IMG/VR virus record: IMGVR_UViG_3300013121_000035
Span: 40,203 to 104,202 of that record
DNA from: a virus
Taxonomy: Duplodnaviria; Heunggongvirae; Uroviricota; Caudoviricetes
DNA length: 64,000 nucleotides
Strand: one strand, 5' to 3'
Shown here: piece after piece, positions 10,540 through 59,721 of the stretch
Layout of the letters: each line of letters starts with the position of its first letter
Position numbering within the stretch: position 1 is the first letter of the stretch
Program-made: the position numbers and the translations under genes
The notes under the pieces: model-generated
What the model was told of the DNA's origin: nothing
Database searches by the model: none
Seen by the model: the letters and a program-made list of their open reading frames with translations, nothing else

Positions 10540-10548
10540 TGGCCATGA

Positions 10549-12264: not shown

Positions 12265-12295
12265 TTGACAGCCTGTCGGACCGGCGCGCTAGAGT
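12265..12295 (+). promoter_or_regulatory. sigma70/HrdB-like promoter TTGACA-N19-TAGAGT
   Basis: Exact TTGACA at 12265-12270 and TAGAGT at 12290-12295. Located about 165 nt upstream of the Cas4-like gene, at the start of the rightward early region. Confidence 0.45.
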
Positions 12296-12459
12296 CGCGT
12301 CCTCGGGGCACGCGGCACGGCCGGTGTCCCGGTCCAGGCGGCTCGGCCGCCCAACGGGCCGACCTCCATCCAGACTCGCCGCGGCGGGCTGGCCGGGGGC
12401 CGGCCCGTTGTCGTTTCCGGGGTGACGCCCGTTGCCATCGTCGACGTCGAGGGGGCTCG

Positions 12460-13374
12460 ATGCTCAGCGAACAACCCGTGCGCGCCATGCTGCCGCGCAA
12501 CAATCGCGGCGGCTACGTGTTCAGGCAGTCCACGATCGGCGCCTGGCAGCGGTGCGCGATGCAGGCCCACTACCTGGCCAGCGGCGCCCCCCGCGAGCAG
12601 CTGTCCGCCACCGCGTACGGGTCGGTCGTCCACCACGCGCTGCATGTCCTGGAACGCTACGGGGACCTCGACCAGGCGCTGGCTACGTTCGAGCACTACT
12701 GGCATCCGGACAACATCGGCGAGCTGTGCGACCCGGTCGACGTGTGGCTGCCCCGCCAGACGTACGGCGGGCTGCGCTCTCGCGGCCTGCGCGCTCTGCG
12801 CGACTACGCCGACCTCGCCCGCAGCGACGAAGCCGACATCCTCGCGTTGGAATACACCTTCACCGTCCCGATCACCGGGACCGACCATGACCTCACCGGC
12901 ACGGTCGACCGGCTCACCATCCGCAAGCAGCGCACCATCCCGTACCTTTCCCTCGACGACCATAAAACGGGCAAAAAGCCTGCCTATTTGCGTCATGCCG
13001 TCCAAGGCACCGCGTATTGCTACGCGACAACGCAGCGGGCGTTTTGGGACGGATTTGACGCGGCGCCCGTCCAGCTCCACAGGAGGGGCGAGCTGGACGG
13101 CGCCGCGTTATTCGAGCTCACCAAAACGTGGGCTCGCCGCTTCCGCTGGATCGACCTGATGCACATCGAGCATCACGACGGCGGCTGGCGCTCCGAACGC
13201 GACTACGCCCGGCTGCGGATGGCGGTCAACCAGATCGCCGCGTGCATCGACGCCGACATCTACCCCATGACGCTGTCGGGCGACACGTGCACCTACTGCG
13301 CGTTCCGCTCGATCTGCGGCGGGATCGGCATCGCCAGCGACGACGAAGGCGCCCCCACCAGGCGGCCAGCATGA
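12460..13374 (+). CDS. PD-(D/E)XK RecB/Cas4-family exonuclease
   Basis: ATG 12460 is preceded by GAGGGGG. Cas4-like DxK motif LSLDDHKTGKK, D in TVDRLT, and a C-terminal 4-Cys cluster (C-x16-C-x2-C-x5-C: CIDAD...CTYCAFRSIC). Confidence 0.65.
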   Translation: MLSEQPVRAMLPRNNRGGYVFRQSTIGAWQRCAMQAHYLASGAPREQLSATAYGSVVHHALHVLERYGDLDQALATFEHYWHPDNIGELCDPVDVWLPRQTYGGLRSRGLRALRDYADLARSDEADILALEYTFTVPITGTDHDLTGTVDRLTIRKQRTIPYLSLDDHKTGKKPAYLRHAVQGTAYCYATTQRAFWDGFDAAPVQLHRRGELDGAALFELTKTWARRFRWIDLMHIEHHDGGWRSERDYARLRMAVNQIAACIDADIYPMTLSGDTCTYCAFRSICGGIGIASDDEGAPTRRPA

Positions 13375-16681: not shown

Positions 16682-17101
16682 ATGCAGCTCACGCACCCCG
16701 ATCCCCAGCCCGCACGCTTCCAGCTCCACCGCCACCGCAACCTCGCCAACCCCGACGCGATCGGCCTGGTCGCCTCCGGCTGCCAGTGGCCCGACGGCGT
16801 CGTCGCGTTGCGGTGGAACACCTCCACCCCGTCGGTCGCCATCTACGACTCGATCACCGTCGTCCAAGCCGTCCACGGCCACAACGGCGACACCGAGGTG
16901 CTGTGGCTGGACACGCCCTACCCGGTCGGCGGGTGGACCGCCAACCCCGAAGGCCCCGTCATCGCCGACGACGAAGACGGCGACCAGCACGTCCACGTCC
17001 CCACCCCCGGCGGCCCCAGCACCCCGTATGAAGACGCGCGCACCAACGAGCTCATCCAGGCGCGCCGCCGCGCCGCCGAATGGCGTGGTGAGCGGCAATG
17101 A
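16682..17101 (+). CDS. hypothetical protein (139 aa)
   Basis: ATG is preceded by AGGAGCCGG. Stop overlaps the primase-helicase ATG (ATGA). Confidence 0.45.
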   Translation: MQLTHPDPQPARFQLHRHRNLANPDAIGLVASGCQWPDGVVALRWNTSTPSVAIYDSITVVQAVHGHNGDTEVLWLDTPYPVGGWTANPEGPVIADDEDGDQHVHVPTPGGPSTPYEDARTNELIQARRRAAEWRGERQ

Positions 17102-23563: not shown

Positions 23564-23776
23564 GTGCCAACCCGCATCCCCACCAACCCTGACGGCACCC
23601 GCACCTGCACCCAGTGCGGCCAGGCCAAACCCGAGGACGCCTACTACAGCTACCCGCCACGCGCCGGCCGGCCGACCCCCCAGCGGTTCGGCTACTGCAA
23701 AGACTGCGCCCGCTTGCGCCGGCGCCAGCGCATCGACCCCCAGTTCCGGCTCGTCGACGTCCTGGTCAGCCGCTGA
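23564..23776 (+). CDS. basic zinc-ribbon protein (70 aa)
   Basis: CAGGAG RBS. CTQCG...CKDC. Confidence 0.4.
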   Translation: MPTRIPTNPDGTRTCTQCGQAKPEDAYYSYPPRAGRPTPQRFGYCKDCARLRRRQRIDPQFRLVDVLVSR

Positions 23777-23838
23777 GCTCGAATGGCCACCCCCAACCGC
23801 CGATCTGTCAACACAACAGGCGCGGCCAGGGGGTGGCA

Positions 23839-24903
23839 ATGGATTCGGAGTACCAGGCAGACGACCCGCGACATCCCAACGCCCCAGTGCACGGGGCCGA
23901 GGACGACGATCAGCGGCGCAGTGACCTCACCATCGCCGAGGTCGTCGCTGGTCTCGGTGACGTTGCGCTGGCACCCGTGCAGCTGCGCGAGCCCCAGCTC
24001 GACGACGACGAGGATGGGCAGCCGCCCCGGCGCGGCGTGGCCTCCAGCGCCACCGTCGCCCACATGCGCGCCATCATGGCCGTCTGCAAGCAGCTCGGCC
24101 TGCGTGTCATGGAAGCCCCCGGCTGGGAGACCCGCGGCCGTTCGATCCTGACCCCGGCCTACTCCATCCAGCACCACACCGCCGTCACCAACGACTGCGA
24201 CTACGTGCTCATCAATGGCCGCAGCGACCTCACCGGCCCGCTGTGCAACTTCGCCCACCACAGCGACGGCACCGTCGTCGCCATCGCCGCCGGCCGGGCC
24301 AACCACGTCGGCGTCGGCACCGTAACCAACAGCGAAAGTTACGGCATCGAGACCACCGGGCCAGTCCCGCTGACCGCGAGCGGCCCGCCCGCGTTCCCCG
24401 AGTACGCCACCGGCGTCCTACTGCAGGCCGCCATCTGCATCCATCACCGCTGGGACCCCAAGGCCAGGGTGCTCGGCCACAAGGAAGTCGCCAGGCCACT
24501 GGGCCGCAAGGTCGACCCGGCCTACGACATGAACGCCATGCGCAACGCGGTCGCCGCAGCGATCGCCGCCCACACTCACAACGTATCGGGGGGGGACCTC
24601 AGCATCGTGGACGCCGCAACCAAGACCTACCTGGACAACCAGTTCAACACCCTCATGCGCGGCACCGCCGCCGGCAAGCTGGACTCCCACCCCTACAACC
24701 TGGAGGAGATCCGCACCCGGCTGCTGAACCTCACCCAGACCGTCGAGCTGATTCGCCTGGGCGACAACCCCGACCCGGCCGGCGGCGACACCCACCCGCA
24801 GAACCTCGACAGCATCTGGAAGGCGCTCAACGCCGTGCGCGCCGACGTCATCAGCCTCAAGGAGACCCTTGGCCGGGTGGAGACTGCCCTGACCGCCAAG
24901 TAA
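23839..24903 (+). CDS. N-acetylmuramoyl-L-alanine amidase (Amidase_2 / PGRP domain) with N- and C-terminal extensions
   Basis: HHTAV...DCDYV...GHKEV...KVDPAYD is a PGRP-type zinc amidase pattern in the central region. Acidic N-terminal 100 aa. Confidence 0.55.
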   Translation: MDSEYQADDPRHPNAPVHGAEDDDQRRSDLTIAEVVAGLGDVALAPVQLREPQLDDDEDGQPPRRGVASSATVAHMRAIMAVCKQLGLRVMEAPGWETRGRSILTPAYSIQHHTAVTNDCDYVLINGRSDLTGPLCNFAHHSDGTVVAIAAGRANHVGVGTVTNSESYGIETTGPVPLTASGPPAFPEYATGVLLQAAICIHHRWDPKARVLGHKEVARPLGRKVDPAYDMNAMRNAVAAAIAAHTHNVSGGDLSIVDAATKTYLDNQFNTLMRGTAAGKLDSHPYNLEEIRTRLLNLTQTVELIRLGDNPDPAGGDTHPQNLDSIWKALNAVRADVISLKETLGRVETALTAK

Positions 24904-30426: not shown

Positions 30427-31971
30427 TTACTGAGCGGACAACATCTGGTCCACGGTGGCGAGCTCGGCGGGGATGATCTCCAGCCGCTTGGGGTCGAAGA
30501 CGCCCCGGCGAGTGACCGGATGGACGATCACCTGGTGGATCAACGTCTGTAGCAGCATCCGCCGGAAGGGCAGTTGCCAGCCATCCCACAGGGCTCGGAG
30601 CCGACTGGCGTCATCGGGGAGTGTGGTGGACAGCGGCTGCGCCTCCTGCAGGCGTTCGATTCGCCGCTCTGACTGCTCGATTCGCTGAGCGACCGGGAGG
30701 CGCATCTGCAGGAACTCCGTGCGTGTGATCTCGCGGTTGGTCAGCATCTCGCCGATCTCGGCGAGCAGCGCTTGATCGGTCTCCAGCGCTTTTGCCAGCC
30801 GGGTCATGTCGGTGTTGGGCTTGATGGCGTCCCGCGTGGCTTTCAGGACGATGGGATTTTCCAACCACTGGAACATGGTCTCGACGATGACGTCCTCGGC
30901 CATGTCCGCCCGCACTGCCAGCTTTCCACACGATCGCTGGTTCTCCTCACCGTGGATGCCTGGTTCGTTGAAGCAGCGGTACAGCGGCTTGCCGTTGATC
31001 ACGCCGCCGATCAGCCGGTAACCGCAGCGTCCGCAGACCGCCACGCCCCCGGTCATCAGGTAGCCGTAGGCTCGCCCATGCTTGGCGTTGGTGCGCACGA
31101 GCGAGCGCAACCGCTCCCACGTCGGCAGGTCCAGGATCGGCGGCCACTGCGCCTTCACCGGGCAGCCGTCGCTGTCCAGCACGATCTCACCGTGATGTTC
31201 CCGGTAGCCGACGATCCTCGGCGAGGTCAACGCGCGCCTGAGCGGAGTCGCCCGCCACATCTTTCCAGTGGTTGTGCGGATCGGCAGGGCGTTCCACTCA
31301 CGAACGATGTCGGTCCAGGTGGCGCGGCCATCAGCAATACGTTGGGCAGCGTCAACGATCAGCTCTGCTTCGGACTCGACGATTCCGTCCCATTTCTCGG
31401 TCAGCCCGAACGCCCGGCTGCCGCCGCCACTCCACTTGCCCTTGGCTGCATTCTCCGCCTGATAGGACAGCTGCCGCCGTTTCATGGCGGCGATCTCCAT
31501 CTCAGCCAGCATGACCAGTAGGCGGATGACGAACTTCCCGATGTCGGTCGACGTGTCGAAGCCGTCCATCGCCGAGGCAATCATGCCGCCCTGGTCTTCC
31601 ACGACGCCCCAGCACCGCTCGAACTCGCGTGACAGACGGACGAGTCGATCCAGCCGCCAGACCACAATCCCATCCCACATGCCGCCGCCGATGTCGGCCA
31701 GCATCGCTTCGTAGTTCGGCCGGCGCACTCGGAGGTCCGCAGCCGTCAGGTCTCGGTCCTTGTACACGCTGCCGATGGTGTGGCCGTGAAGGTCGGCCCA
31801 CTTCTCGATGTCGGCCAGCTGCCGGTCGTACCCCGTCTTGGTTCCGTCCCGGTCAACGGTCAATCGCAAATAGGCTGCTAGGTCTGCCAACGCTGTCTCC
31901 TCGCTCGGCTCGCGGCCCCCCGCCGCAGATCTGCAGGTCGTAGTATATGCCATAACGAACGGTGGGGTCAC
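30427..31971 (-). CDS. int: large serine recombinase (integrase) with zinc-ribbon and coiled-coil C-terminal domains
   Basis: GTG start. Resolvase-domain motifs YDRQ and VVWRLDRLVRLSRE. CGRCGY...YRCFN...SCG zinc ribbon. Long helical C-terminus. The predicted nucleophile position reads RLT (Thr) rather than RxS. Confidence 0.7.
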   Translation of the reverse strand: MTPPFVMAYTTTCRSAAGGREPSEETALADLAAYLRLTVDRDGTKTGYDRQLADIEKWADLHGHTIGSVYKDRDLTAADLRVRRPNYEAMLADIGGGMWDGIVVWRLDRLVRLSREFERCWGVVEDQGGMIASAMDGFDTSTDIGKFVIRLLVMLAEMEIAAMKRRQLSYQAENAAKGKWSGGGSRAFGLTEKWDGIVESEAELIVDAAQRIADGRATWTDIVREWNALPIRTTTGKMWRATPLRRALTSPRIVGYREHHGEIVLDSDGCPVKAQWPPILDLPTWERLRSLVRTNAKHGRAYGYLMTGGVAVCGRCGYRLIGGVINGKPLYRCFNEPGIHGEENQRSCGKLAVRADMAEDVIVETMFQWLENPIVLKATRDAIKPNTDMTRLAKALETDQALLAEIGEMLTNREITRTEFLQMRLPVAQRIEQSERRIERLQEAQPLSTTLPDDASRLRALWDGWQLPFRRMLLQTLIHQVIVHPVTRRGVFDPKRLEIIPAELATVDQMLSAQ

Positions 31972-46001: not shown

Positions 46002-46211
46002 TCATGCCGGCAGCGCCTTCCAGTCCCGCTCGGCGAGCCACTCGTGGGTGACGGGCATGTGGACGCTGATGACGTGCGTTACCAGCGTCTGGTGCAGCAC
46101 GGTCGGCCGGCGCAGCACCACGACCGCGTCCGGCGCGTCGACCCGCTGGCTGGTGTCGCACGGCTCGCTGACCCACTGGCAGTGCAGACAGCACACCCGC
46201 ACCTGGTTCAT
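46002..46211 (-). CDS. Cys-rich small protein (69 aa)
   Basis: ATGA overlap with the phosphoesterase stop. VCCLHCQW...C. Confidence 0.3.
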   Translation of the reverse strand: MNQVRVCCLHCQWVSEPCDTSQRVDAPDAVVVLRRPTVLHQTLVTHVISVHMPVTHEWLAERDWKALPA

Positions 46212-47038
46212 GGCAGCGTCCAGGTGAGCTCGGGCAGGTCCAGCCACGCCCACGACCGATCCGCCTCGATGTTGCTGGCCAACCCCACCACCCGCGTCGT
46301 GCCGCCAGGGTGGGTGACCTGGTCGGTGTAGAACGCGTGGAAGTGGCCGTGGAACTGCACGACCGGGCGGGTGTGGTCCACGATCTGGCGGACCCGCTGG
46401 CGGTTGGCATCCGACGCGCGGATCGAGCGCATCCCCGGTGGGATCGCACCTAGCGGCGCGTCGTGGGTGAGCAGCACATCGGTGCGCCCACCACGGCAGG
46501 CGCGGCGCACGTCGTCGTCGGTCAGCTCCTCCTCCGGCCACCAGCTCAACCCTGGCACCCGCCACTTCTTGTCGATCGAGTACGCCCCGCCCACCGCCAG
46601 GAACCGCACCCCCTGCCACGTCCACCGATGCCCACGCGGCAGGTAGGCGATGTGGTCGCGGATCGGCCACGTCCCATCCGGGTTGACCAGATGCTCGTGC
46701 GGGGCGTCTTGCTCGTGGCCGGCGCGCTTGCAGCCTGGCACCCGCGCCGGCTGATACTGCTGGCGTAGCCACTGATGGTTCTCATGGTTGCCGTCCAGCC
46801 ACAGCAGCCCCATCTCGAAGCTCGCGGCGAGCTCCTCGACGTGGTCCAGGTACTCAACTCCAGCGTCGGTGTGCTCCCAGAACCCGAAGTCGCCCAGCTG
46901 CACGATCACGTCCGCGTCGGCCTCGGCGACCTCGAACAGCTTCTGCACATGCCAGATGTCGGCGTGGGTGTCACCGGCGAGCAGGACCCGGCGAGGGTTG
47001 AGCGTGGCGGTGAACGACCCGGTGGTAGTCACGGCCAT
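46208..47038 (-). CDS. calcineurin-like metallophosphoesterase
   Basis: GDTHAD, GDFGF, LDGNHENH, THD and GHFH motifs form the MPP signature. Confidence 0.65.
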   Translation of the reverse strand: MAVTTTGSFTATLNPRRVLLAGDTHADIWHVQKLFEVAEADADVIVQLGDFGFWEHTDAGVEYLDHVEELAASFEMGLLWLDGNHENHQWLRQQYQPARVPGCKRAGHEQDAPHEHLVNPDGTWPIRDHIAYLPRGHRWTWQGVRFLAVGGAYSIDKKWRVPGLSWWPEEELTDDDVRRACRGGRTDVLLTHDAPLGAIPPGMRSIRASDANRQRVRQIVDHTRPVVQFHGHFHAFYTDQVTHPGGTTRVVGLASNIEADRSWAWLDLPELTWTLP

Positions 47039-48750: not shown

Positions 48751-49086
48751 TCACACCGCCACCGGGTCGCCACGACGGCTGGTCAGGAACTGCGCGAGCT
48801 GGTAGGTCGCCGCAGCGGCAAGCTCCGCGCGCACCCGCCGGTCGGTGATGTGGTTGCGGGTGCAGATCCCATCCACCGCCCGGTTGATCAACGCTTCGGT
48901 GTCCATCGACTGGATCAGCTGGTGGCAGGCGTCGCCGACGACCCAGCTGTCCCCGGACACCAGCGTGTGCTCAGCGTCCACTGCCAGCACCTGCCCCGGC
49001 TCGACCGGATAGGACCAGCTGATTGACTCCTCCGCGCACAGGTCACACGTCGGGGGAGCGTCCACAGGCTTGGGGTTGTACGCCAT
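48751..49086 (-). CDS. hypothetical protein (111 aa)
   Basis: ATG with GGAGGG RBS (MAYNPKPVDAPPTCDLCAEE...). Confidence 0.45.
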   Translation of the reverse strand: MAYNPKPVDAPPTCDLCAEESISWSYPVEPGQVLAVDAEHTLVSGDSWVVGDACHQLIQSMDTEALINRAVDGICTRNHITDRRVRAELAAAATYQLAQFLTSRRGDPVAV

Positions 49087-49090
49087 CGCT

Positions 49091-50131
49091 TTAGCCCTCC
49101 ACCAGCATCGCAACCTGCTGCAGCTGCACGCGCACCAGGTCGATCGCGTCGCCGGCGTCTTCCAGCGCGGCGTCCAGGGTCTCGGTGTACTCCTGCGCCC
49201 GGTTGAGCACCAAGTCGTAGCGGGCCTTGAGCTTGGCGGCCCGCTCGGCGGTGATCGGGTTGTTGGCCTTGGTCACCGTCGCCAGCTCCGCTGACAGCTC
49301 CTGCAGCTGTTCACGGGTCTCCGACCGGAAGTCCTCGATCACCATCTCCCGCAGCCGCGGCAGGTCCAGGCACGGCACCAGTCGCATCGTGGAGGTCCCG
49401 CCGTAGCGTTCGACCAGCGTTGCCAGCCGCGCCAGCGTCTCGTGACGGGTCTTGGGCACGAAGTAGGTCCCGCCGGACTGGATCAGCCGTACCGCGTTCA
49501 GGTGTGGCCCGAGCAGGTACTCCCGCACGATCGAGCGCAGCTTGTCCGCGGCGTAGAAGTCGCACAGCTCGGAGTGGCGGCGCATCGTGCGGGCCATCAG
49601 GTCCTCCACGATGCCTTCCTCGAACGGGGCCAGCTGCTGGTCGCCGGTCGCCGGGTCGTGCACGAAGATCTGCTGCTTGATCCTGGTCGACGTCCGATCG
49701 GCCGCCTTGCCCCGCCCCGCCCGGTACAGCACCAGCTCACCGATCTTGGCCGAGTAGTGCAGCCGCTCCTTCTTGCCGTCGGTGATCTGGCGGACCAGGT
49801 GGTAGACCAGCCGCTCGGGGCTGGTCGCCACCTTGACGGCCGTCACCGTCGCGGTCAGCTCGCCTTTGCGGCCCACGTCGTAGGCGTGCTTGACCTCCGC
49901 GCAGGCACGCTCGAACGCGCCGAAGATCTTGATCGGCGGCGGCATGTACATCGCCGAGTCCAAGCCGAGCTCATCGAACCAGGACTGCAGCTTCTCGCGG
50001 GACACCTGGTGCGGCTCGGCGACACGGAACATCACCACCGAACCCAGCAGTGCCTCACTGCCAACTTGGGCGATGTCGTGTAGGTAGCGGTCCAGGTCGG
50101 CCGCGTGGGTTGCGTCTGTTGCCACGGTCAT
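49091..50131 (-). CDS. hypothetical protein (346 aa), no recognisable motif
   Basis: ATG with strong AAGGAGGG RBS. High GC3 throughout. Confidence 0.5.
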   Translation of the reverse strand: MTVATDATHAADLDRYLHDIAQVGSEALLGSVVMFRVAEPHQVSREKLQSWFDELGLDSAMYMPPPIKIFGAFERACAEVKHAYDVGRKGELTATVTAVKVATSPERLVYHLVRQITDGKKERLHYSAKIGELVLYRAGRGKAADRTSTRIKQQIFVHDPATGDQQLAPFEEGIVEDLMARTMRRHSELCDFYAADKLRSIVREYLLGPHLNAVRLIQSGGTYFVPKTRHETLARLATLVERYGGTSTMRLVPCLDLPRLREMVIEDFRSETREQLQELSAELATVTKANNPITAERAAKLKARYDLVLNRAQEYTETLDAALEDAGDAIDLVRVQLQQVAMLVEG

Positions 50132-50191
50132 ACGTGCTCCCTCCTTCGGGCGCGTCGGGACGCCCCCCGCCCCGACGTGGGTCGGAGGGGT

Positions 50192-50563
50192 CTACGGGGG
50201 GGTCAGGTCAGGGCGAAGATCACGCAGGTGCTTCACCCCGTCGATCACGGCGGCTTCCACATAGCGCAGCCGCCGCAGCGAGGAACTGGCCATCATCCGC
50301 TGGCCGGCGCGAATGCCACGCCAACGGGCATGGTCGGTCGGCCGCGGACGCATCGTCTCCGGCGGCAGGCCGCGCGCGACCCAGGAACGCTGACGTTCCC
50401 GCTCGGCGACCCGCAACGCCTTGCCGGGGGGGATCACGTCCATCCCAGCTTCGAGGACCTCCTCCAGCGGGTGCCAGTCACCATCGGCAAGCACCCGCAG
50501 CATCGCCAGCGATGCCGGGCTGAGCGTCACACGCGGGTGCGCCTTGTTCGGGTTACTTGCCAC
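50192..50563 (-). CDS. hypothetical protein, possible winged-helix DNA-binding (123 aa)
   Basis: Track ORF. LAMLRVLADGDWHPLEEVLEAG. Confidence 0.4.
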   Translation of the reverse strand: MASNPNKAHPRVTLSPASLAMLRVLADGDWHPLEEVLEAGMDVIPPGKALRVAERERQRSWVARGLPPETMRPRPTDHARWRGIRAGQRMMASSSLRRLRYVEAAVIDGVKHLRDLRPDLTPP

Positions 50564-51539
50564 GCAGCTTCTCCGCCAGCAGGCTCAGGCGACTGGCGGC
50601 GTCCTCCAGGTCGCGGATCATCTGCGGCCGCTCAGCGCTTGGCACCGACTCGACCACCGCAGCCTCGTCGAGCTTGCGGATGCCGCCGACGTACATGCGG
50701 ACCACATTGCGGGGGCTGCCGGTCAGGTCCATGACCCGCCCTTGGCGGCGGGTGGCGAGGTTGGCTTCCAACTGGTCCAGGTAGGCCCAGGTGTCTTCCT
50801 CGCTGCTCATCTTGTTGATGTCGGTCACCATCGTGAAGACCTCGGGGGACTTCATCCGCGTGTCGACCGCGAGCTGCGCGGCCCGCTCGAACCAGCGGTC
50901 CATCTTGATCTGGTTCAGCCGTGCCTGGGAGGAGTTGGCCAGGGACACAAACCCGCGGACCTTCAGCTTCTGCGCGCGGCGGATCGCGGCCTCCTTGTTG
51001 ACCGCGCCCTGCACCTTGCCCTTGGGCAACGCCAGCTGCCGGGCCGCCTCGTCAGGGCTCACCCCGGCGTTGCGGACCAGCCAGATCGCGTGGCTGACCC
51101 GCACCCGCTCCTCGGGGATCAGCCCGTTGTGGCCGTTGGCGGTCAACGTCATCGCCTGCAGCTTGATCGGGTCGGTGCCCGGCTCGACGACGTAGTGCGG
51201 GAACGACTCGAAGTCGTTGGACAACGCCGCCGCGATCCGGTTGTTCCCGTCGATCAGGATCAGCCCACCGACCGGATCGGGGTAGGAGACGACCGCGGGG
51301 AACTCCGTACCGTGCTCCATCAGCTCGGTGTAGGACTCCACCAGGTCGGGCACCAGCGCCTCGTCACGGGCCTGGTTCTGGCGGCTCTTGGCCAGGTTGA
51401 CCTTCTCCAGGGGGACTTCGGGGTCGTAGTACCACTCGACGTCCCAGTCCTCCAGCCACTGTTCGATGTCGGCGCGGCGGGCCGCGTCATCCAGCGGCGC
51501 GAGGTCGCTGGGGCCAAGCTGCTTGCGGGTGGATGCCAT
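50553..51539 (-). CDS. ParB/Sulfiredoxin-like N-terminal nuclease-domain protein (328 aa)
   Basis: LILIDGNNRIAAA matches the ParB GxxR box. About 200 aa of C-terminal helical extension. Confidence 0.55.
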   Translation of the reverse strand: MASTRKQLGPSDLAPLDDAARRADIEQWLEDWDVEWYYDPEVPLEKVNLAKSRQNQARDEALVPDLVESYTELMEHGTEFPAVVSYPDPVGGLILIDGNNRIAAALSNDFESFPHYVVEPGTDPIKLQAMTLTANGHNGLIPEERVRVSHAIWLVRNAGVSPDEAARQLALPKGKVQGAVNKEAAIRRAQKLKVRGFVSLANSSQARLNQIKMDRWFERAAQLAVDTRMKSPEVFTMVTDINKMSSEEDTWAYLDQLEANLATRRQGRVMDLTGSPRNVVRMYVGGIRKLDEAAVVESVPSAERPQMIRDLEDAASRLSLLAEKLRGK

Positions 51540-51559
51540 CGGCGGGAACCTCCGGATCG

Positions 51560-53188
51560 TCAGATCGTGCGGAACAGGTCGCCGGTGGTCGATTCCACAT
51601 CAATCAGGTCGACCACCGTGCGGGTGTTGTCGCTCACGGCGGCGATCTCGGGGGTGACATCGGTTGCGACCGCCACGCCGAAGCAGCGGAACCCGCTGCG
51701 GTCTTTGCGCTCATGCCAGCGGCGCAGAAACGTCGGGGAGATCGGCGCTTCACCGTCGGTGACGAACACGATGTCGCCATGCTGGCGCCCGGTGCCGCTG
51801 AACTCCCGCTCCAGGAGTCCACTGGCGACGTCCAGCGGTGCCTCAAAGTCGGTCCCCCCACCCCAGAAGTGCTCAGCGAGCGCAATTCGGTCGCTGATGG
51901 TAGACGCACCAGCACGAAACAGGAAAGTCTGGATTTGGTTGCGCGAGCTGAACAGGACACACGCGAAATCCCGCTTGGCCGTGCGCGCCTGGTCCAGCAG
52001 CGCAAGCGACAACGCCTTGCCCCACGCCTCCCGGCTCGGCTCGCGCATCTGCCAGCTGATCCCGCCGCCCATCGACCCCGAGCAGTCCAGCACGACCACG
52101 ATCGCGCCCTTGCCGATGCGTTCCTCGCCGCGTAGCTGGCCTTGCAGCAGGCTGCTCTCGGCGAACCGGCGCAGGAACTCGATCTCCAGGTCGTCGTCAG
52201 CCAGCAGCAGCAGCTCGCTGGGCAGCACCAGCCCCAGGTCGTTGCCGGTCACGATGTCGTGCAGCTCATCCACCCCGTGGACGACCTTGCGGGCACGCTC
52301 CGCCTGCGCCAAGGTCCGCATCCGCCCGATCAGCTCGCTGAACTTGCGCAGCTTGTCGCTCTGCAGCTGCTTGGCGAGCTGCTGACGCTGGCGGAAGTCC
52401 AGCTTCTGCAGCTCCCCGTCGCCGATGCCCCACGAGCGCATCGCCTCGGCCTGCTCGTCCAGGTCCTTGGTCGCCTGCTCCGCCGCCTCCCGTAAGCTCT
52501 TGGCGGTCTTGGCCTTCAACGCGTCGTTGGCGTCGTCCAGCAGCTCCCCGGCAGCCTGCGCTGTCGCAGCTGCCTGCTGCGCATCCGCCATCGCCTGCGC
52601 CAACTGCTGCGCGGCGTCCTCGGGCAGCGACCCGTCCTCGCCGGCTTGCTGCTGCGCCTGGTCGAGTTGCTCAGCCAGCGCCTGGGCTTGGGCGGCCGCC
52701 TCGGCCTGGGCACGCTCAACCTCCTCCGCGCGCTCCTCGGCCTCAGCAGCCTGGGTGAGCGCGTCCTCGATCGCCGGGCGCATCCCCAGCAGGCCCATCA
52801 CCGCGCCGTACTCGTCATGGATCGAATGCTGGCGTAGCGCCTCGATCTCACTGGTCTCCGACAGGTTGCCGACCACCGTGTGGTTGGTCCGCCACCGCGG
52901 GTGCATCTGGTCACGGTCGCGCCGTTCGGGGTAGTTCTTGTACAGCAGGTGGTACAGGTCGCGCAGCAGATCGCCGGTGTGGCCGTGATGTTCCCCCAAT
53001 TCCTCGGCCACATCGCTCAGTGCAGGCACCTCACCCAACAGTTCCTCGAACATCTGCGCGTCGAAGCGGTCGTGGCGGATCGCGTCGGTCGCTGTCGGGT
53101 AGACCTCCGCAACCGATGCCAGGAACGACTCAACCTCGCTGACCAGCTGCGCTCCATCAGGAGTTTGGTCCTCACTCACTGCGCACAC
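51560..53188 (-). CDS. von Willebrand factor A (vWA) domain protein with MIDAS motif and long coiled-coil N-terminal region (542 aa)
   Basis: C-terminal VVVLDCSGSMGG (DxSxS) and FVTDGE. Central AEAEERAEEVERAQAEAAAQ... coiled coil. Confidence 0.65.
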   Translation of the reverse strand: MCAVSEDQTPDGAQLVSEVESFLASVAEVYPTATDAIRHDRFDAQMFEELLGEVPALSDVAEELGEHHGHTGDLLRDLYHLLYKNYPERRDRDQMHPRWRTNHTVVGNLSETSEIEALRQHSIHDEYGAVMGLLGMRPAIEDALTQAAEAEERAEEVERAQAEAAAQAQALAEQLDQAQQQAGEDGSLPEDAAQQLAQAMADAQQAAATAQAAGELLDDANDALKAKTAKSLREAAEQATKDLDEQAEAMRSWGIGDGELQKLDFRQRQQLAKQLQSDKLRKFSELIGRMRTLAQAERARKVVHGVDELHDIVTGNDLGLVLPSELLLLADDDLEIEFLRRFAESSLLQGQLRGEERIGKGAIVVVLDCSGSMGGGISWQMREPSREAWGKALSLALLDQARTAKRDFACVLFSSRNQIQTFLFRAGASTISDRIALAEHFWGGGTDFEAPLDVASGLLEREFSGTGRQHGDIVFVTDGEAPISPTFLRRWHERKDRSGFRCFGVAVATDVTPEIAAVSDNTRTVVDLIDVESTTGDLFRTI

Positions 53189-53195
53189 CTCCCTC

Positions 53196-54398
53196 CTACT
53201 TGTCCTGCCAGATCTCGTCGGCGCTGTTCGCCGGCCGCATCCCCAGGCACTGGGTCCACACCTGGTTGGCGACCTCCAGGTGGCGGGCGATGATCTCGTC
53301 CAGCTTGGTCGTGGACCGGCCGGACTTGACCGCGTCGGCGCGTAGCTTCTTGAGCTTCTTGTGCATCGTGCGCATCTTGGCGTTGGCGTCGAACCCGAAC
53401 TTGTTCAGCTCGTCGCGCGCCTCACCGCCCAGATCCCGCAGCCGGGAGGCGAGCTCGTTGACGCTCTCCAGGATGATCACCGCGTCCTTCAGCTGCGGGC
53501 TGGCCAGCGTCAGTACCATCCGCTCCACCGGCTGGACCTGCTCGATCGTCTCCCACAGCGCGTAACGCAGGATGATCAGGTCTTCGTCGATGCACTGGGA
53601 ACGGCCGTTCAGGTAGGCGTGGGCTTGCACCAGCCGCACGCACTGTTTGAACCTGCGATCGGAGGGATGCATCCCCGCGCCGCGCATCTGGGTCCACAGC
53701 TTGGCCATCGCCTCGAAGATCGCGTCGGACACCGGCAACGCGGGCACCTCGACCCGCACCGCCTGCTCCAGCTCTGCCAGCGACACCGTCGTCGGGATGC
53801 TCGCCGGCGCGACCGCCGAGCGCAGCAGCTTGTCGAAGTTGCCTGGCTCCTCGATGTAGTTGACCGGGAACCGGACCAGGAAGCGGTCGAAGATCGCCGC
53901 GGTCTCCTCCGAGTCGGGCAGCTCGTTGGACGCACCCAGCACGCTCAGCGTCGGCGTGGCCACCGGCTGGGGGTTGTGGAAGATGTGCTCGTTGGCGATC
54001 GCCAGCAGGGCGTTCAGCACCGCCGAGCGGCCCTTCCAGATCTCGTCGATGTAGGCGATGTGCGCCTCGGGCAGCATCCCGTCGGTCACCCGCACGTAGC
54101 GGCCACGCTTGAACTCGTCGATGTCCAGCCCGCCGACGACCTCCTCCACCTGGGTGGTCGGCCACAGCAGCTTCTCGAAGTAGTGCGCGTCGGTGACTCG
54201 CTCGCAGAACGCGCGGATCAGCTGGGACTTCGCGGTCCCCGGCGGGCCGAGCAGGAACCCGTTGGCGTTGGCCAGCACGGTCACCGCCAACGCCTCGATC
54301 GCGCCGCGGCGCTCCAGGAACTCCTCGGTGAGCTCGGTGACGATCGCCTTCAGCTTGGCCTGCGTCGTCGCGGTTGGGGTCACGGTCACGGTGGTCAT
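53196..54398 (-). CDS. MoxR-type AAA+ ATPase (400 aa)
   Basis: Walker A GPPGTAKS and Walker B IAYIDEIWK. Sensor region ALLAIANE. Immediately upstream of the vWA partner gene. Confidence 0.65.
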   Translation of the reverse strand: MTTVTVTPTATTQAKLKAIVTELTEEFLERRGAIEALAVTVLANANGFLLGPPGTAKSQLIRAFCERVTDAHYFEKLLWPTTQVEEVVGGLDIDEFKRGRYVRVTDGMLPEAHIAYIDEIWKGRSAVLNALLAIANEHIFHNPQPVATPTLSVLGASNELPDSEETAAIFDRFLVRFPVNYIEEPGNFDKLLRSAVAPASIPTTVSLAELEQAVRVEVPALPVSDAIFEAMAKLWTQMRGAGMHPSDRRFKQCVRLVQAHAYLNGRSQCIDEDLIILRYALWETIEQVQPVERMVLTLASPQLKDAVIILESVNELASRLRDLGGEARDELNKFGFDANAKMRTMHKKLKKLRADAVKSGRSTTKLDEIIARHLEVANQVWTQCLGMRPANSADEIWQDK

Positions 54399-54877
54399 CT
54401 CTCCTCGCTCTCCGCAACGGCCGTTGCCGTTGCCAGGTCAGGGTCTTCCTCCGGTGGTAGGGGGCGCTGCTTGGCGCCCATGAACGGCGTGCTGCTCACC
54501 GCCGGCTCGCTCGGGTGGTAGCCCCACGGCAGCCGTTGCCCGGTGGTGTTGACGTACAGGTGGTACTGGTTGGCTGCGTCGACCTTGCGCGACTCCGCCG
54601 GGTACAGCTCGATCCCCTCAGCCTCGGGGCCGAAGATGTCGTTCTTGATCCGTTGGAAGTCACGCCAGTCGCGGATCGCCGCCCGGTTGTTGTGGCGGAT
54701 CGACAGGTGCGCCCACCCGTCCATGTCGGTCGGCTCCACGATCACCGTGTACTTGTCGTTCTTGAACATCCGCGCGCCGCGTGCGAAGAACCGCTCGATC
54801 ACGTCCGGCTGGATCGGAGCGGCGGGCGCCATCCGCTGCCACGGGCGGGGAGTGTTGGACTTGCGCTGCTTGCCCAT
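54395..54877 (-). CDS. hypothetical protein (160 aa)
   Basis: Track ORF. ATGA overlap with the MoxR start. W/H/R-rich. Confidence 0.45.
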   Translation of the reverse strand: MGKQRKSNTPRPWQRMAPAAPIQPDVIERFFARGARMFKNDKYTVIVEPTDMDGWAHLSIRHNNRAAIRDWRDFQRIKNDIFGPEAEGIELYPAESRKVDAANQYHLYVNTTGQRLPWGYHPSEPAVSSTPFMGAKQRPLPPEEDPDLATATAVAESEER

Positions 54878-55101
54878 CAGCTCACCTTCGCCTCACGCTC
54901 GCGGACCTTGCCCAGCAGCACCTCCAGGTCCTTGATGATCCCGCCGAGCGTCTTGGCCTCACGGGCGAATCCGGCCGCGGTCAGCGCCTTGTGGGCCTTG
55001 TCCAGCGACGGGAACGCCGTGTTGATCGCTGTCTTGGCCCTGGACGCCTGCCGTGCCGGGCTCAACCTGGCCTCACTGGTCGCCATGCTTCCTCCCTTCA
55101 C
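54877..55101 (-). CDS. hypothetical small protein (74 aa)
   Basis: Track ORF between the ligase gene and the 54395..54877 gene. Confidence 0.35.
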   Translation of the reverse strand: MKGGSMATSEARLSPARQASRAKTAINTAFPSLDKAHKALTAAGFAREAKTLGGIIKDLEVLLGKVREREAKVS

Positions 55102-56021
55102 GTCACCGGCAGCTCATCCAGCTGCGAACTCACACACGCCGCCGGCTCCACGTCGCTGCGGACCCCCTTGAACGCGGGGTTGCGCAGCTTGCCGTCACGG
55201 CTGACCGACAGCGCCTCCACCTCCACTACCAGCGGCACCCCGGCGTCGAGCGTCTGCTTGCAGACCGCCAGGTCCGCCTCGGTCAACCCCGAGCCGACCT
55301 TGCCGACCAGCAGCAGCGACGCATCTGGGGCGACCAGGACCAGCTTCAGCGCGCCGACCTTCCCGGCCCTGGCACCCTGGCCGGGCTCGTAGCCGATCGC
55401 GATCGCGGTCAGCCGGCTGGTGGTCTTGAACTTGCACCACGCCGGGCTGCGCCGACCCACATACCGTGAGCCGCGCCGCTTGGCGACCACACCCTCCAGC
55501 CCCAGCGCCCGCACCTGCGCCCACAACGCCACGCCGTCCTCGCACACCACGGAGCGGCGCACCGGGCCGTCCGCCGGCCACGCGGCCGCCAGCTCGTCCA
55601 GGCGTCCCAGGCGCACCTCCAGCGGCTGGCCGCGCAGATCCCGGCCGCCCTCGGCGAGCAGGTCGAACGCGATCAGCGTCGCGGGGAACTGGCGAGCTGC
55701 CAGCCGGATGGAGAAGTCGCCCTGCTGCGCGTCACGGCGGTGGATCGCGGCGAAGTCCGGCCGGCCGCCACGCAGCACAACCAGCTCGCCGTCAACGACA
55801 ACGTCCGTCAACAGCGCAGCCAGCGCGCTGGTCAGATCTGGGTAGCGCGCGCTGATGTCAGCGCCGCGCCGATTGCGCAGCCGCACATGCCCCCCCTCGG
55901 CGACCACGATCGCGCGGACGCCGTCCCACTTGGTATCCCACAGCCACTGACCGCTCGCCTGGAACGCCGCGATCTGCTCGGGCTGTCCGGGACTGGCCAG
56001 CATCGGCTGGAAGCCGCTCAC
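55098..56021 (-). CDS. ATP-dependent DNA ligase (adenylation + OB domains)
   Basis: GTG start overlaps the RuvB-like stop (GTGA). Motif I KWDGVRAIV, then FDLL, EGVVAK, WCKFK. Confidence 0.7.
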   Translation of the reverse strand: MSGFQPMLASPGQPEQIAAFQASGQWLWDTKWDGVRAIVVAEGGHVRLRNRRGADISARYPDLTSALAALLTDVVVDGELVVLRGGRPDFAAIHRRDAQQGDFSIRLAARQFPATLIAFDLLAEGGRDLRGQPLEVRLGRLDELAAAWPADGPVRRSVVCEDGVALWAQVRALGLEGVVAKRRGSRYVGRRSPAWCKFKTTSRLTAIAIGYEPGQGARAGKVGALKLVLVAPDASLLLVGKVGSGLTEADLAVCKQTLDAGVPLVVEVEALSVSRDGKLRNPAFKGVRSDVEPAACVSSQLDELPVT

Positions 56022-57130
56022 GATAGCGCCTTGCCGTGACGGGCGTCCGCCAGCTGCTGGATACGCGCCTGGCCGAGCTGGGTCAGCGAGCGGCCGTTGG
56101 CGGTGCGCGTGATGAACCGGCGGTCCACCAGCAGCTGCTCGACGTAGGCCAGCCCACCCGGCTCGCGCATCTGGTTGGCGATCGCCTTCTCCCCAGCGGT
56201 CCCACCGAGATCGCGCAGCGTGAGCAGGTAGTGCGCGGCCTGGTCGGTCAGCCCGTCGGGGTACAGCCCCGCGCGGCGCAGCGGCACGTCCAGATCGAAC
56301 GTGGTCCCGTCCCAGTTGTCCCCGTCGCGGGCGACGTAGATGTCGCGCACCGCGATCAGCACCGGGATCATCAGCCGCGGCACCCGGTTGGCTGCCGTGG
56401 AGATCGTGTAGTAGAAGTCCGGGTCGGTGGGCAGCGGCACCCCGTCAGTGCCGAACCCGACCCGTGCGGCCAGCTGCACGCAGATCGACAGGGCCTCAAC
56501 TTCGTCGTAGGGGTGCAGCGCTGGGCGGATCAGGAAACGGTCAAGGATCGTCTCCGGCAATCGGCCCGCGTCGGTCGTCGCGCCGATCACCGTGACGTCG
56601 GGCACGTCGTCCAGCGTCACCCCGCCAGCGCCGAACAGCGCGCCGTCCTGCAGGTAGTTCAGCAGCCATTCGGCCTTGCCCTTGCCGCCGTGCACCAACC
56701 GATGGACCTCGTCGATGAACAGAATGTCGTGGTCGTCCAGGCTCACCAGCGCCGCGTAGGCGTCCTTGACCGTGAGCGTCCCCGACAGCATCAGGAACTG
56801 CTGGCCCCACTCCTTGCCGACCAGCATCGCCAGGCTCGTCTTGCCGATCCCCGGGATGCCCGAGGCCAGCAGGATGTGGTCCAGGCGCGCGTCGCGCCGT
56901 CGTGCTGAGGTGATCGCGTCGCGCAGGTGCGCCTTGGCGTCCTCCTGGCCGACGTACTCACTCCAGCTACGCGGGTAGTGGGTGCTGGTGAAGATCGCGT
57001 CGCCGCTGGCCGGGGCGAACTGGCTGGCCAGCGCCGTCGCCTTGCCCTCCTCGCGGATCGCCTTGCGCCGGCGTTGGATGAAGTCCATCGCCACCTGGCC
57101 GGCGAACATGTTGACCGCGCTGCCACGCAT
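56018..57130 (-). CDS. RuvB-like AAA+ ATPase
   Basis: Collinear RuvB pattern: YPRSWSEYVGQ, LDHILLASGIPGIGKTSLA, ILFIDEVHRL, VTVIGATTDAGRLPETILDRF. No ruvA-like gene is adjacent. Confidence 0.6.
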   Translation of the reverse strand: MRGSAVNMFAGQVAMDFIQRRRKAIREEGKATALASQFAPASGDAIFTSTHYPRSWSEYVGQEDAKAHLRDAITSARRRDARLDHILLASGIPGIGKTSLAMLVGKEWGQQFLMLSGTLTVKDAYAALVSLDDHDILFIDEVHRLVHGGKGKAEWLLNYLQDGALFGAGGVTLDDVPDVTVIGATTDAGRLPETILDRFLIRPALHPYDEVEALSICVQLAARVGFGTDGVPLPTDPDFYYTISTAANRVPRLMIPVLIAVRDIYVARDGDNWDGTTFDLDVPLRRAGLYPDGLTDQAAHYLLTLRDLGGTAGEKAIANQMREPGGLAYVEQLLVDRRFITRTANGRSLTQLGQARIQQLADARHGKALS

Positions 57131-57132
57131 GG

Positions 57133-58020
57133 TCAGCTCGCCTTCCGCCGCCGCCTGACCGGCGCCGGCGCGGCCTCGACCGGCTCGGCAGGCGTGGGCT
57201 TGGGCTTGGGCTTGCGGGTCCGCTTGGGCTTGGGCGTGTTGGCCGCCACCGCTGCCCGCAGCGTCGCCATCAGGTCGCCACCAGTCGGCAGCTCAACCAC
57301 TGCCGCCTGCGCCGTGGCCGCCTGCGGGTCCTTGGCCGCCACGATCTCGGCCAGCTTGTCGGCCTTGACGTCGCGGTAGGCAGCCGGGTCGAACGGGCGG
57401 GTCAGGCTCGCCAGGAGCTGCTCGGCCAGCGGCAGCGCACCCTCGGCGAAGCTGGTCGGCACCATCGGCATCGCCTTGATGTCGGCCGGCCAGGCCAGCT
57501 GCTCCAGCACCAGCACGTCGCCGAAGGTCCGCAGCGCGAACATGGTGACGGCCGTTCGCAGCGCCAGCCGGCAGCACAGCGTCAGCTCCGGGTGGGTCTT
57601 GAGTGCCGCTGCGATCAGCGCGTACGCCTCAGCGGTGGAGGCGTCGCTGGTCAGGTAGTAGACCTTGCCGCCCGGCAGCGTCTTGGCCTTGACCTGCTCG
57701 CTCGGATGGGGGAACAGCTCGACCCGCTCGCCCTTGAACGCCTCGACCTCGGCGTCGATCGCGGCCAGCTCCTGGTCAGTGAGCAGGACGTAGGCGTCCT
57801 TGCCCTTGGGCCGGCCCTTGGTGAACGTCGCCTTGTCGGCATTGCCGCACGTCGGGCACGTGCTGGACTGCTTGGGCTTGTCGGGTGGGTGGGGCTTGTC
57901 CGCCGAGCCGACGCACAGCGTCGTGTGCGAGCTCGGGCTGGTGATGGCGCTCTCCACGTCGACCCTGGCCGAGACCAGCGGGCCGAACGCGAGCGTCACC
58001 CCCGAGGTGACCGTTGCCAT
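57133..58020 (-). CDS. ku: Ku (NHEJ DNA end-binding protein) with Lys/Pro-rich C-terminal tail
   Basis: ATG (MATVTSG...) is preceded by AAGGAGG. Ku-core pattern: VTLAFGPLVSARV, CPTCG...DAYVLLTDQELAAID, VELFPHPSEQV, KVYYLTSD, EAYALIAAAL, LAWPADIK. C-terminus carries KPKRTRKPKPKPT. Confidence 0.7.
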   Translation of the reverse strand: MATVTSGVTLAFGPLVSARVDVESAITSPSSHTTLCVGSADKPHPPDKPKQSSTCPTCGNADKATFTKGRPKGKDAYVLLTDQELAAIDAEVEAFKGERVELFPHPSEQVKAKTLPGGKVYYLTSDASTAEAYALIAAALKTHPELTLCCRLALRTAVTMFALRTFGDVLVLEQLAWPADIKAMPMVPTSFAEGALPLAEQLLASLTRPFDPAAYRDVKADKLAEIVAAKDPQAATAQAAVVELPTGGDLMATLRAAVAANTPKPKRTRKPKPKPTPAEPVEAAPAPVRRRRKAS

Positions 58021-58137
58021 GTGAGCCTCCTTGGTTCGAGGCGGCACCCCAACCCGGTGGCAACCGGGGGAGATGCGTTGTCGTCCTGCCAGTATACTAC
58101 AGAATTAGCTAAGTCTCACCTGCTCTGACCAGGTGTT

Positions 58138-58923: not shown

Positions 58924-59721
58924 TCATGCGGCCCAGTCCTCGATGTCGTCCACCTGCTCCACGCCGGCCGCGGCGACGACGTCAGCCATCGACAGGTCCA
59001 TGCGGAAGCGGTGGCCCATGCGCGCCTCGGCTGCGGCGTACTCCGTGGCTAGGTCCGGGCGCAGCTGTGCGGCCAGCACGAGCTGACTGCGGCTGGCGAA
59101 CACGCAGAACGAACAGCTCAGCCGTGGCATCCCCTGGTCGTACACCGGGTGATAGGGCACCCCGGACGCCCGGATGCGCTGCCACACCTGCGCGGTGGAC
59201 CAGGCGTGGATCGGCAGCCACTCCCATACGTGCCGGCGGGTCTTGTTGCTCGCCCGCTCGTCGAAGGCGAACGCCGGCCGCTTGGCCCTGGCCGGCGACT
59301 CCGCCGCTCGCAGGCCCATGCAGTTCAGGATCTTCACCGGCCGGTCCAGGTCCAGCTCCCGCACCAGCTGGGTCATCAGCTTGTAGACCTGGTTGCGCTT
59401 GAACTCCGACGTGCAGTAGCGGTTCTTGGCGTCCGGCCACCGGCCGCGCAGCTCGATGCGTTCCAGCAAGTCGATGTCAGGGTGCTCGACGATCTCGAAC
59501 CGCAACCCGTAGTGCGCCGCCTGCCTGCCTGCCAGCTCGGGCACCCCGTCCCACTCCACCCGGCCCAGGTCAGCGTGGACAACCACGATCCGGCTGCGTG
59601 GCACACCCTAGGCGTCGGCCAGCTCGGCCACGACGTCCAGCTGCGCCTGAGAGTCCTTGCCCCCGGAGGAGTTGACCAGCAACACGTCGTAGTCGTTGAG
59701 GTTCACGGTGGCTCCTTGCAT
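58924..59721 (-). pseudogene. PAPS-reductase-like (phosphoadenosine phosphosulfate reductase family) gene interrupted by in-frame TAG at 59608-59610
   Basis: N-terminal segment (ATG about 59721) carries VLLVNSSGGKDSQ. After TAG the same frame continues through GTG 59604: GVPRSRIVVVHADLG...CTSEFKRNQ...SCSFCVF. The two segments together read as a single gene. Confidence 0.5.

Follow-up and report, generated by a model that had tools for sequence, protein, structure and literature searches.

A ten-gene run in a viral genome fragment

The stretch of DNA considered here, referred to as the window, comprises 64,000 nucleotides (nt) of a Caudoviricetes virus (IMG/VR record IMGVR_UViG_3300013121_000035, positions 40,203 to 104,202) with a GC content of approximately 68%. 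Nearly all credible genes between approximately 44.5 and 64 kb lie on the minus strand. Within this region, a run of ten genes encodes, in the direction of transcription, Ku, a RuvB-like protein, a ligase, a 74-amino-acid (aa) open reading frame (ORF), a DUF7694 protein, a MoxR-class ATPase, a von Willebrand factor A (vWA) protein, a ParB-like protein, the small protein p123, and a DUF6744 protein. Three of these, the MoxR, vWA, and DUF6744 genes, form a cassette that recurs on phages and plasmids and is the subject of this report. The genes of the run, with one promoter-like site, are as follows:

49091-50131, minus strand: DUF6744 protein, 346 aa (Pfam DUF6744, 6.8e-23); third core gene of the cassette
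50192-50563, minus strand: p123, small basic protein of 123 aa, isoelectric point (pI) 11.2, without recognizable family
50553-51539, minus strand: probable ParB/Srx-superfamily protein, 328 aa (phrog_1033, 9.6e-5)
51560-53188, minus strand: ViaA-like vWA protein, 542 aa (VWA_2, ViaA model); second core gene
53196-54398, minus strand: MoxR-class AAA+ ATPase of the RavA clade, 400 aa (bpMoxR, RavA model); first core gene
54395-54877, minus strand: DUF7694 protein, 160 aa (Pfam DUF7694, 4.8e-17; phrog_7839, 4.1e-17)
54877-55101, minus strand: p74, basic ORF of 74 aa
55098-56021, minus strand: LigD-type ATP-dependent ligase, ligase domain only (Pfam and NCBIfam)
56018-57130, minus strand: RuvB-like AAA+ protein (Pfam and NCBIfam)
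57133-58047, minus strand: Ku (Pfam and NCBIfam)
58091-58119, minus strand: sigma-70-like promoter match just upstream of Ku (weak evidence)

An earlier note on this DNA had described the last six genes of the run as a consecutive block, and all six do lie on the minus strand within the limits it gave. They are tightly packed: the DUF7694 stop codon overlaps the MoxR start codon (ATGA, a 4-nt overlap), gaps of 7, 20, and 60 nt separate other neighbors, and the ParB-like and p123 genes overlap by 11 nt. The block had been placed upstream of the ligase, RuvB, and Ku genes; since transcription runs from high to low coordinates, it is in fact downstream (3′) of them. The promoter-like site before Ku is the sole one between 46 and 61 kb, where 0.6 would be expected by chance, and is a possible start of a transcript through the cassette; no minus-strand terminator-like site was found in the same interval. 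Gene packing and this one weak promoter match suggest a single transcript across the run from Ku to DUF6744. Repeats inside the block are attributable to chance similarity within GC-rich coding sequence.

A RavA-clade ATPase and a ViaA-like vWA protein

The first core gene encodes a MoxR-class AAA+ protein, as the earlier note had claimed, with an AAA+ module followed by a MoxR-type lid. Its Pfam matches are bpMoxR (1.9e-48, 164.7 bits, cutoff 27), AAA_5 (1.5e-19, 70.8 bits, cutoff 22), and AAA_lid_8 (8.7e-18, 64.3 bits, cutoff 22.8). The catalytic motifs include Walker A (GPPGTAKS), Walker B (DE, residues 118-119), sensor-1 (N158), the arginine finger (R172), and sensor-2 (R248/R249), and residues G54, K57, D118, E119, N158, R172, R248, and R249 are invariant across 26 relatives. 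The only solved relative in the PDB is Escherichia coli RavA, which matches at 1.5e-43 over the AAA+ module (residues 19-296), and the NCBIfam RavA model (NF010054) matches at 1.6e-51. RavA equivalence was nevertheless rejected, as the score of 175.9 bits lies below the cutoff of 681, of the 498 model positions only 11-328 are aligned, and the whole protein is only 400 aa long. It does not possess the C-terminal LdcI-binding LARA region of RavA.

The second core gene encodes a protein with an N-terminal region, an acidic coiled-coil middle, and a C-terminal vWA domain, recognized by VWA_2 above its gathering score (1.6e-8, 35.6 bits, cutoff 27). The metal ion-dependent adhesion site (MIDAS) reported in the earlier note is present and complete, consisting of D368-x-S370-x-S372, T446, and D478, which are conserved in at least 52 of 57 relatives. 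The ViaA model (NF008230) aligns with residues 155-521, that is, over the helical middle and the vWA domain (3.2e-18), and its 66.2 bits fall far under the 500-bit cutoff, on which grounds ViaA equivalence was also rejected. The protein matches phrog_24053 at 1.3e-53; a PDB sequence search returned no match, and no fused peptidase was found in it. The pair shares with E. coli RavA-ViaA the order of ATPase followed by vWA protein and an intact MIDAS.

A three-gene cassette of mobile elements

The relatives of this pair were collected by two independent routes. The first, through DUF6744, gave 61 loci (6 viral contigs, 51 genome contigs, and 4 annotated records), the genome contigs coming mainly from Actinomycetota and Bacillota and including named Kutzneria and Prauserella plasmids. 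The second, through MoxR alone, gave 20 viral loci. By family hidden Markov models (HMMs), the MoxR, vWA, and DUF6744 genes occur together on one strand in 53 of the 61 loci of the first route. Six of the eight exceptions are short or cut contigs; in another (L046) the vWA gene is fragmented and MoxR is missing, and in the last (L059) the downstream flank is only 2.9 kb long. Along the second route, DUF6744 is also present in 16 of the 20 viral loci, and one of the four apparent failures, Bacillus phage 0305phi8-36, carries it 8.5 kb from its vWA gene. DUF6744 is thus an obligate third component of the cassette.

Other genes do not share this linkage. All-against-all clustering of the ORFs from the 61 loci gave only three widely shared families (61, 58, and 54 loci), the next being antisense shadows, and a Pfam scan of the 137 nearest or inserted neighbors found no family in more than two loci. 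The pairwise identities of the three families correlate across 69 loci (r = 0.92, Mantel p = 0.001). Together, linkage, clustering, neighbor scan, and co-divergence indicate that the unit consists of three genes, which move as a block between mobile elements. The earlier note had proposed a six-gene unit in which the pair is coupled to a nuclease-like ParB partner; conservation across the comparison loci reduces that unit to MoxR, vWA, and DUF6744, and the ParB-like gene is absent from all 84 of them. Its view that the function of such pairs in a phage genome is essentially uncharacterized holds, and the pair is now seen to belong to a conserved multi-gene system whose role in mobile elements is equally uncharacterized.

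The cassette is found in large phages and viral contigs, in Moorella phage MTATph1, and on plasmids of Streptomyces, Nocardia (pNF1), Kutzneria, Prauserella, Brevibacillus, and Pseudanabaena, whose hosts span Actinomycetota, Bacillota, and Cyanobacteriota. On Streptomyces and Nocardia plasmids, tblastn with the MoxR protein detected genes of 40% identity, and there AAA ATPase, vWA, and DUF6744 genes are annotated in this order with nothing between them. The DUF6744 family also appears in single genome bins labeled Acidobacteriota and Desulfovibrio, as well as in a haloarchaeal tailed virus. While the window-type pair resides on mobile elements, always with DUF6744, the true RavA-ViaA locus of a Vibrio chromid (L064) lacks this gene.

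Two viruses extend these comparisons. In 0305phi8-36 (EF583821), orf066 (MoxR) and orf063 (vWA) belong to the same clade as the pair in the window (HMM matches at 7e-127 and 4.5e-149). The DUF6744 homolog is ORF046 (175435-176304, 2e-18), which is annotated as hypothetical, lies apart from the pair, and had never been linked to it. In Haloarcula vallismortis tailed virus 1 (HVTV-1, L087, KC117377), gene 25 (9815-10966) is a DUF6744 member by both HMM (6.9e-30) and structural match (7e-17); the annotated AAA ATPase (gene 59) and vWA (gene 57) genes of this virus fall outside the RavA-like clade and are encoded on the opposite strand, at a distance of 15 kb.

The DUF6744 family

The 346-aa protein had been called unknown with a strong ribosome-binding site (RBS). 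The RBS stands, with GAAGGAGG located 8 nt ahead of the ATG, while the protein proves to be a member of the named, uncharacterized Pfam family DUF6744 (PF20529), which it matches with 81.5 bits (cutoff 27) over residues 25-341 and model positions 15-309 of 314. The 60-nt gap before the gene (50132-50191, minus strand) holds, directly ahead of the RBS, a GC-rich hairpin, CGTCGGG...CCCGACG, without a T-run, which could be a processing or attenuation element. At its other end, the gene is overlapped by 23 nt by a 120-aa ORF (48751-49113, minus strand), a possible occasional companion of the cassette; a homolog of this ORF lies between the RuvB-like and DUF7694 genes of viral contig L084 (15843-16184, 3e-6).

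An exhaustive profile HMM search was needed to reveal the extent of the family, since word-indexed homology searches gave only one and five proteins. It returned 2,796 cluster representatives at E ≤ 1e-3 and 1,279 at 1e-10; among the best 150 of the 2,796 matches, lengths range from approximately 240 to 410 aa and are mostly near 300. All 149 aligned relatives match DUF6744, and no other Pfam family recurs among them, even at E ≤ 1. An AlphaFold2 model built from this 149-sequence alignment has a mean predicted local distance difference test (pLDDT) score of 93.2 and a predicted template modeling (pTM) score of 0.86; an earlier model from five sequences was poor (pLDDT 62.6) and was not used. 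The predicted structure comprises an N-terminal alpha/beta region (residues ~28-255) followed by a bundle of three helices at the C-terminus (258-345). Judged by secondary structure only, the N-terminal region might be an alpha+beta domain of helix-grip or TBP-like type, an assignment that is not claimed here. Near-invariant residues are G30, P64, D71, A72, F73, A76, E115, R199, G220, Y223, F224, and P253, with no cluster of Cys or His among them. A Foldseek search of the model against the PDB gave no match below E = 1e-3, and among predicted viral structures four uncharacterized proteins match at 7e-17 to 4e-11, one of them from HVTV-1. The literature search found no mention of DUF6744, DUF7694, PF20529, or PF24746.

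Genes inserted in the cassette

In the window, the vWA and DUF6744 genes are separated by the ParB-like gene and p123. The ParB-like protein carries an NQAR...LILIDGNNRIAAA motif at residues ~55-105, an HTH-like (helix-turn-helix) stretch at ~140-175, and a helical C-terminus. The PHROG family of ParB-like partition proteins (phrog_1033) matches residues 56-107, and the order of NQAR...IDGNNRIAAA (DGNNR) followed by the HTH-like stretch fits that of ParB domains. Pfam ParB_N (PF02195) does not match the protein itself, and it matches the sole distant homolog (P0155) below threshold (7.7e-4, 19.9 bits against a cutoff of 26.3). ParB box II, the CTP-binding GERR, reads GNNR. The neighboring p123, called winged-HTH-like in the earlier note, has no match in Pfam, PHROGs, NCBIfam, PADLOC, or the PDB, and PDB sequence searches with the ParB-like profile and the DUF7694 protein were likewise negative. 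The 160-aa DUF7694 protein had been listed as unknown; it belongs to a named Pfam family that is uncharacterized.

Homologs of the ParB-like protein, p123, and p74 are found beside the trio in none of the 84 comparison loci, and a DUF7694 homolog lies near it in one (L084). Relatives of the ParB-like protein occur on two metagenomic contigs (L085 and L086) which do not carry the trio genes, although these contigs are short. Other loci have unrelated insertions at the same junctions of the trio. The ParB-like gene is therefore a lineage-specific insertion rather than a conserved partner, p123 was probably inserted together with it, and DUF7694 is an occasional neighbor, not a core gene. A PAPS-reductase-domain protein (8.2e-15) is encoded at 58924-59604 on the same strand, approximately 7 kb upstream of the ParB-like gene. 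Prophages are known to carry pairs of ParB-like and PAPS-reductase-like genes of the IbrA/IbrB type.

Ku, ligase, and RuvB-like genes near the cassette

The Ku protein of the window matches Pfam Ku (1.6e-9, 38.4 bits, cutoff 25) and scores 91.6 bits against 150 with the Ku_bact model. The ligase matches DNA_ligase_A_M with 90.9 bits (cutoff 26.2) and NHEJ_ligase_lig with 206.5, just under 227.75; no polymerase or phosphoesterase domain accompanies this LigD-type ligase in the window. Both proteins are divergent, as their domains match while the NCBIfam scores remain under the cutoffs. The window thus encodes the Ku core and the LigD-type ligase domain of bacterial nonhomologous end joining (NHEJ), resembling the bacterial Ku-LigD system and the Ku of mycobacteriophages Corndog and Omega. 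It differs from these in that the element carries a ligase and a RuvB-like ATPase of its own, both recurring beside the trio. The RuvB-like protein matches RuvB_N (3.8e-27) and RuvB_C (2.5e-6), as well as the RuvB model at 5.6e-41, below its cutoff; no RuvA-like gene was recognized near it.

The physical link to the Ku and ligase genes seen in the earlier note extends beyond this genome. Four further viral contigs, so diverged that they share only 25-42% identity with the window, carry Ku, LigD-like ligase, and/or RuvB-like genes within a few kilobases of the trio, each in a different order:

L065, 86 kb, GC 0.67: Ku, ligase, MoxR, two ORFs, vWA, one ORF, DUF6744, several ORFs, RuvB-like
L008, 117 kb, GC 0.67: Ku-like, MoxR, DUF6744, four ORFs, vWA, RuvB-like, ligase
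L007, 145 kb, GC 0.51: DUF6744, RuvB-like, several ORFs, ligase-like ORF (assigned to the ligase family by clustering only, with no direct match to the window ligase), MoxR, vWA
L084, 80 kb, GC 0.65: MoxR, vWA, DUF6744, RuvB-like, homolog of ORF 48751-49113, DUF7694

That this neighborhood has been kept through rearrangement hints at functional coupling. The combination of Ku, ligase, and RuvB-like genes with the MoxR-vWA-DUF6744 trio was not described in the literature searched.

The remainder of the window

No recognizable virion gene (capsid, portal, or terminase) is present in the window; for this reason the label of phage, although plausible, derives from the relatives being IMG/VR viral contigs. 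The window also encodes a large serine integrase (1.2e-79; 30427-31971, minus strand), and, on the plus strand, an endolysin-like protein (23614-24903), a Toprim+DnaB primase-helicase (17098-19071), an AAA_24 protein (14765-16150), and a PD-(D/E)XK nuclease (11620-13374), a set typical of a temperate phage or phage-plasmid. No Pfam family matches the three very large plus-strand ORFs (91-2172, 2547-4742, and 4949-8977; 693, 731, and up to 1342 aa), and PHROG matches are nearly absent, only the C-terminus of the third matching families of unknown function. In the same minus-strand run as the cassette, approximately 2 kb downstream of it, lies a gene for a calcineurin-like metallophosphoesterase (46208-47038; Metallophos_2, 2.8e-6). 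Searches for close relatives of the element were negative: near-identity DNA searches of phages and plasmids with the block and two 24-25 kb stretches of the window, a look-up of an exact 40-mer in IMG/VR, and a metagenome scan with the single MoxR protein returned no match. The proteins of the window are recorded from a single 104,202-bp JGI contig only.

A putative remodeling machine and its alternatives

Characterized MoxR/vWA pairs act as an ATP-driven hexamer with an adaptor that uses its MIDAS to hold on to an acidic residue of the client, as described for RavA-ViaA, Midasin, and an archaeal virus tail system (PMC7159879) and, in the same mode, for NorQ-NorD (PMC9976466). By analogy with RavA-ViaA, CbbQ-CbbO, NorQ-NorD, and the Mg-chelatase BchI-BchD, the ATPase of the cassette would form a hexameric motor onto which the vWA protein docks. 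The MIDAS-bound metal would grip an acidic residue of a client, which ATP hydrolysis would then remodel. Strong conservation of the catalytic residues of the ATPase and of the MIDAS makes this mode of action the best-supported part of the proposal. The DUF6744 protein may be either the dedicated client or a specificity subunit that brings the real target to what would be a physical complex of the three. A self-contained RavA-clade MoxR, ViaA-like, and DUF6744 cassette may thus remodel a client for the DNA establishment, replication, or repair of its element, an explanation to which we give an even chance. The cassette of the window has gained the ParB/Srx-like gene and p123 between its second and third genes, and DUF7694 in front.

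The machine would serve the mobile element rather than the host, and would be used early. An early role in DNA metabolism is proposed because phage cassettes sit in the DNA-metabolism module, where Ku, LigD-type ligase, and RuvB-like genes are recurrent neighbors; the foremost guess is DNA establishment or repair. Service to the element is favored by this setting and by the lytic jumbo phage 0305phi8-36, in which deletion of an island containing the MoxR and vWA genes (181,412-189,531) left a viable phage with a growth defect (PMC3357382). Several points weigh against this proposal. The same deletion removed two tRNAs and six other ORFs (PMC3357382). None of the plasmid and genome loci has the Ku, ligase, and RuvB-like neighborhood on the same strand, and since plasmid loci generally occur without these genes, the link to DNA ends may be mere synteny of a phage replication module; the recurrent neighborhood could simply mean that these genes all reside in the replication and repair module of a single broad phage lineage. 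Co-divergence of the trio is also expected from shared host phylogeny. The role of DUF6744 is a guess, as PDB searches with its globular part gave no informative match, and the protein is mildly acidic (family median pI 6.0) with no DNA-binding signature.

A more specific version of the proposal is a long shot: the trio may be a DNA-end-associated machine for protein extraction or loading that works with the Ku, ligase, and RuvB-like proteins of the element. For example, once the ends of a phage or plasmid genome have been joined or the genome has circularized, it might strip off ring-shaped Ku or some other protein caught on the DNA. If true, such stripping would be a prokaryotic mobile-element analog of the p97-dependent removal of Ku in eukaryotes. 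Eukaryotic Ku contains a vWA domain that bacterial Ku lacks, a relationship that Ku stripping by a vWA-containing trio would echo.

The main rival holds that the trio is a conflict system, which would detect an invader and set off a response such as superinfection exclusion, inter-element competition, or abortive infection, or a counter-defense device that dismantles a host defense complex. Defense or counter-defense was the function suggested in the earlier note, and we regard this rival as unlikely, though deserving serious weight. In Pfam, the ATPase scores best with the MoxR model derived from beta-propeller ternary conflict systems, and the architecture of MoxR, vWA, and a conserved third protein is that of the MoxR-vWA ternary systems, of which VMAP, iSTAND, FtsH, and beta-propeller types have been described (Kaur et al., 2020; PMC7159879). 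Like defense cassettes, the trio occurs on mobile elements with unrelated flanks, and its occasional neighbors include a PemK toxin and a GmrSD_N protein. However, DUF6744 belongs to none of these four classes, its 149 members having no Pfam match to any of them even at E ≤ 1, and the trio contains no effector domain (nuclease, peptidase, TIR, or pore) or effector-associated domain (EAD), and its vWA protein lacks the fused peptidase of the described systems, so that the defense or counter-defense reading rests on analogy. The third-component and effector features of the published class are thus missing from the cassette, which is carried by plasmids and phages rather than by the chromosomes of multicellular bacteria; it is best filed as a mobile-element variant of the ternary systems. 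PADLOC-DB v2 gave no meaningful match for any of the ten genes, with none at all for MoxR, DUF6744, ParB-like, p123, or DUF7694 and only chance-level JetC matches (5e-3) to the coiled coil of the vWA protein. The trio also lies within replication and repair modules, not defense islands, and is present in a lytic jumbo phage whose growth drops when the island is lost. A counter-defense role is compatible with all of these objections.

The other alternatives carry less weight. The tight same-strand packing of the six genes, with stops and starts overlapping or nearly abutting, and the resemblance of DGNNR to the DGQQR-type motifs of ParB/Srx NTPase-nuclease domains in conflict systems would fit a single system in which MoxR-vWA has the ParB/Srx-like protein as its effector, a nuclease or NTPase; given the absence of this gene beside the trio elsewhere, its trio-less metagenomic relatives, the unrelated insertions at the same positions, and its sub-threshold assignment, such a system is improbable. 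A partition or segregation module centered on the ParB protein is barely credible despite the domain order, as no ORF of the window contains the ParA motif KGGxGK[ST], no significant parS-like repeated palindromes occur in 48.5-58.5 kb, the GERR box is replaced, and the gene is not conserved with the trio; a canonical ParABS system, which the earlier note had named as a way to overturn its reading, was rejected on the first three of these grounds. Viral MoxR-vWA pairs have been assigned a role as virion-assembly chaperones (PMC7824862), as for the MoxR of Acidianus two-tailed virus and the pairs of group 2.2 jumbo phages, and archaeal virus MoxR proteins give weak tblastn matches. This role is very improbable here, as the trio occurs on many plasmids without virion genes, lies among DNA-metabolism rather than structural genes in the window and viral contigs, and lacks the metallopeptidase fusion of the group 2.2 pair. 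Insertion of a metal cofactor into an enzyme of the element, as by CobS/CobT-, NorQ/NorD-, or CoxD/E-like chaperones, is the classical role of several MoxR/vWA pairs, and the 0305phi8-36 genes were annotated as metalloprotein chaperonin subunits; with no metalloenzyme gene conserved beside the trio and no Cys/His cluster in DUF6744, there is very little to recommend it.

Implications for mobile-element biology

MoxR-vWA accessory genes of unknown role are common on phages, plasmids, and integrative and conjugative elements. Pairs in conjugative backbones (pCAR1 ORF101/103, R478, Rts1, and SXT/R391), whose function is unknown, share with the window the character of a conserved mobile-element accessory but are described as CbbQ-type, another MoxR clade. 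The literature searched describes no conserved third gene, DUF6744, or cassette distribution for such pairs, and a search joining "leading region" and von Willebrand found nothing. One clade is now precisely defined as a three-gene cassette with a structurally unclassified third protein and approximately 2,800 DUF6744 clusters, a unit that is testable in existing experimental systems, including phage 0305phi8-36, Moorella phage MTATph1, Nocardia pNF1, and the Streptomyces plasmids. As the published deletion in 0305phi8-36 left ORF046 in place, this phage permits a single-gene test of the trio. The recurrent neighborhood with Ku, ligase, and RuvB-like genes supplies a concrete functional hypothesis. 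Should the cassette act on DNA-end or establishment complexes, or dismantle host defenses, it would represent a new class of ATP-driven remodeling machine in the biology of mobile elements.

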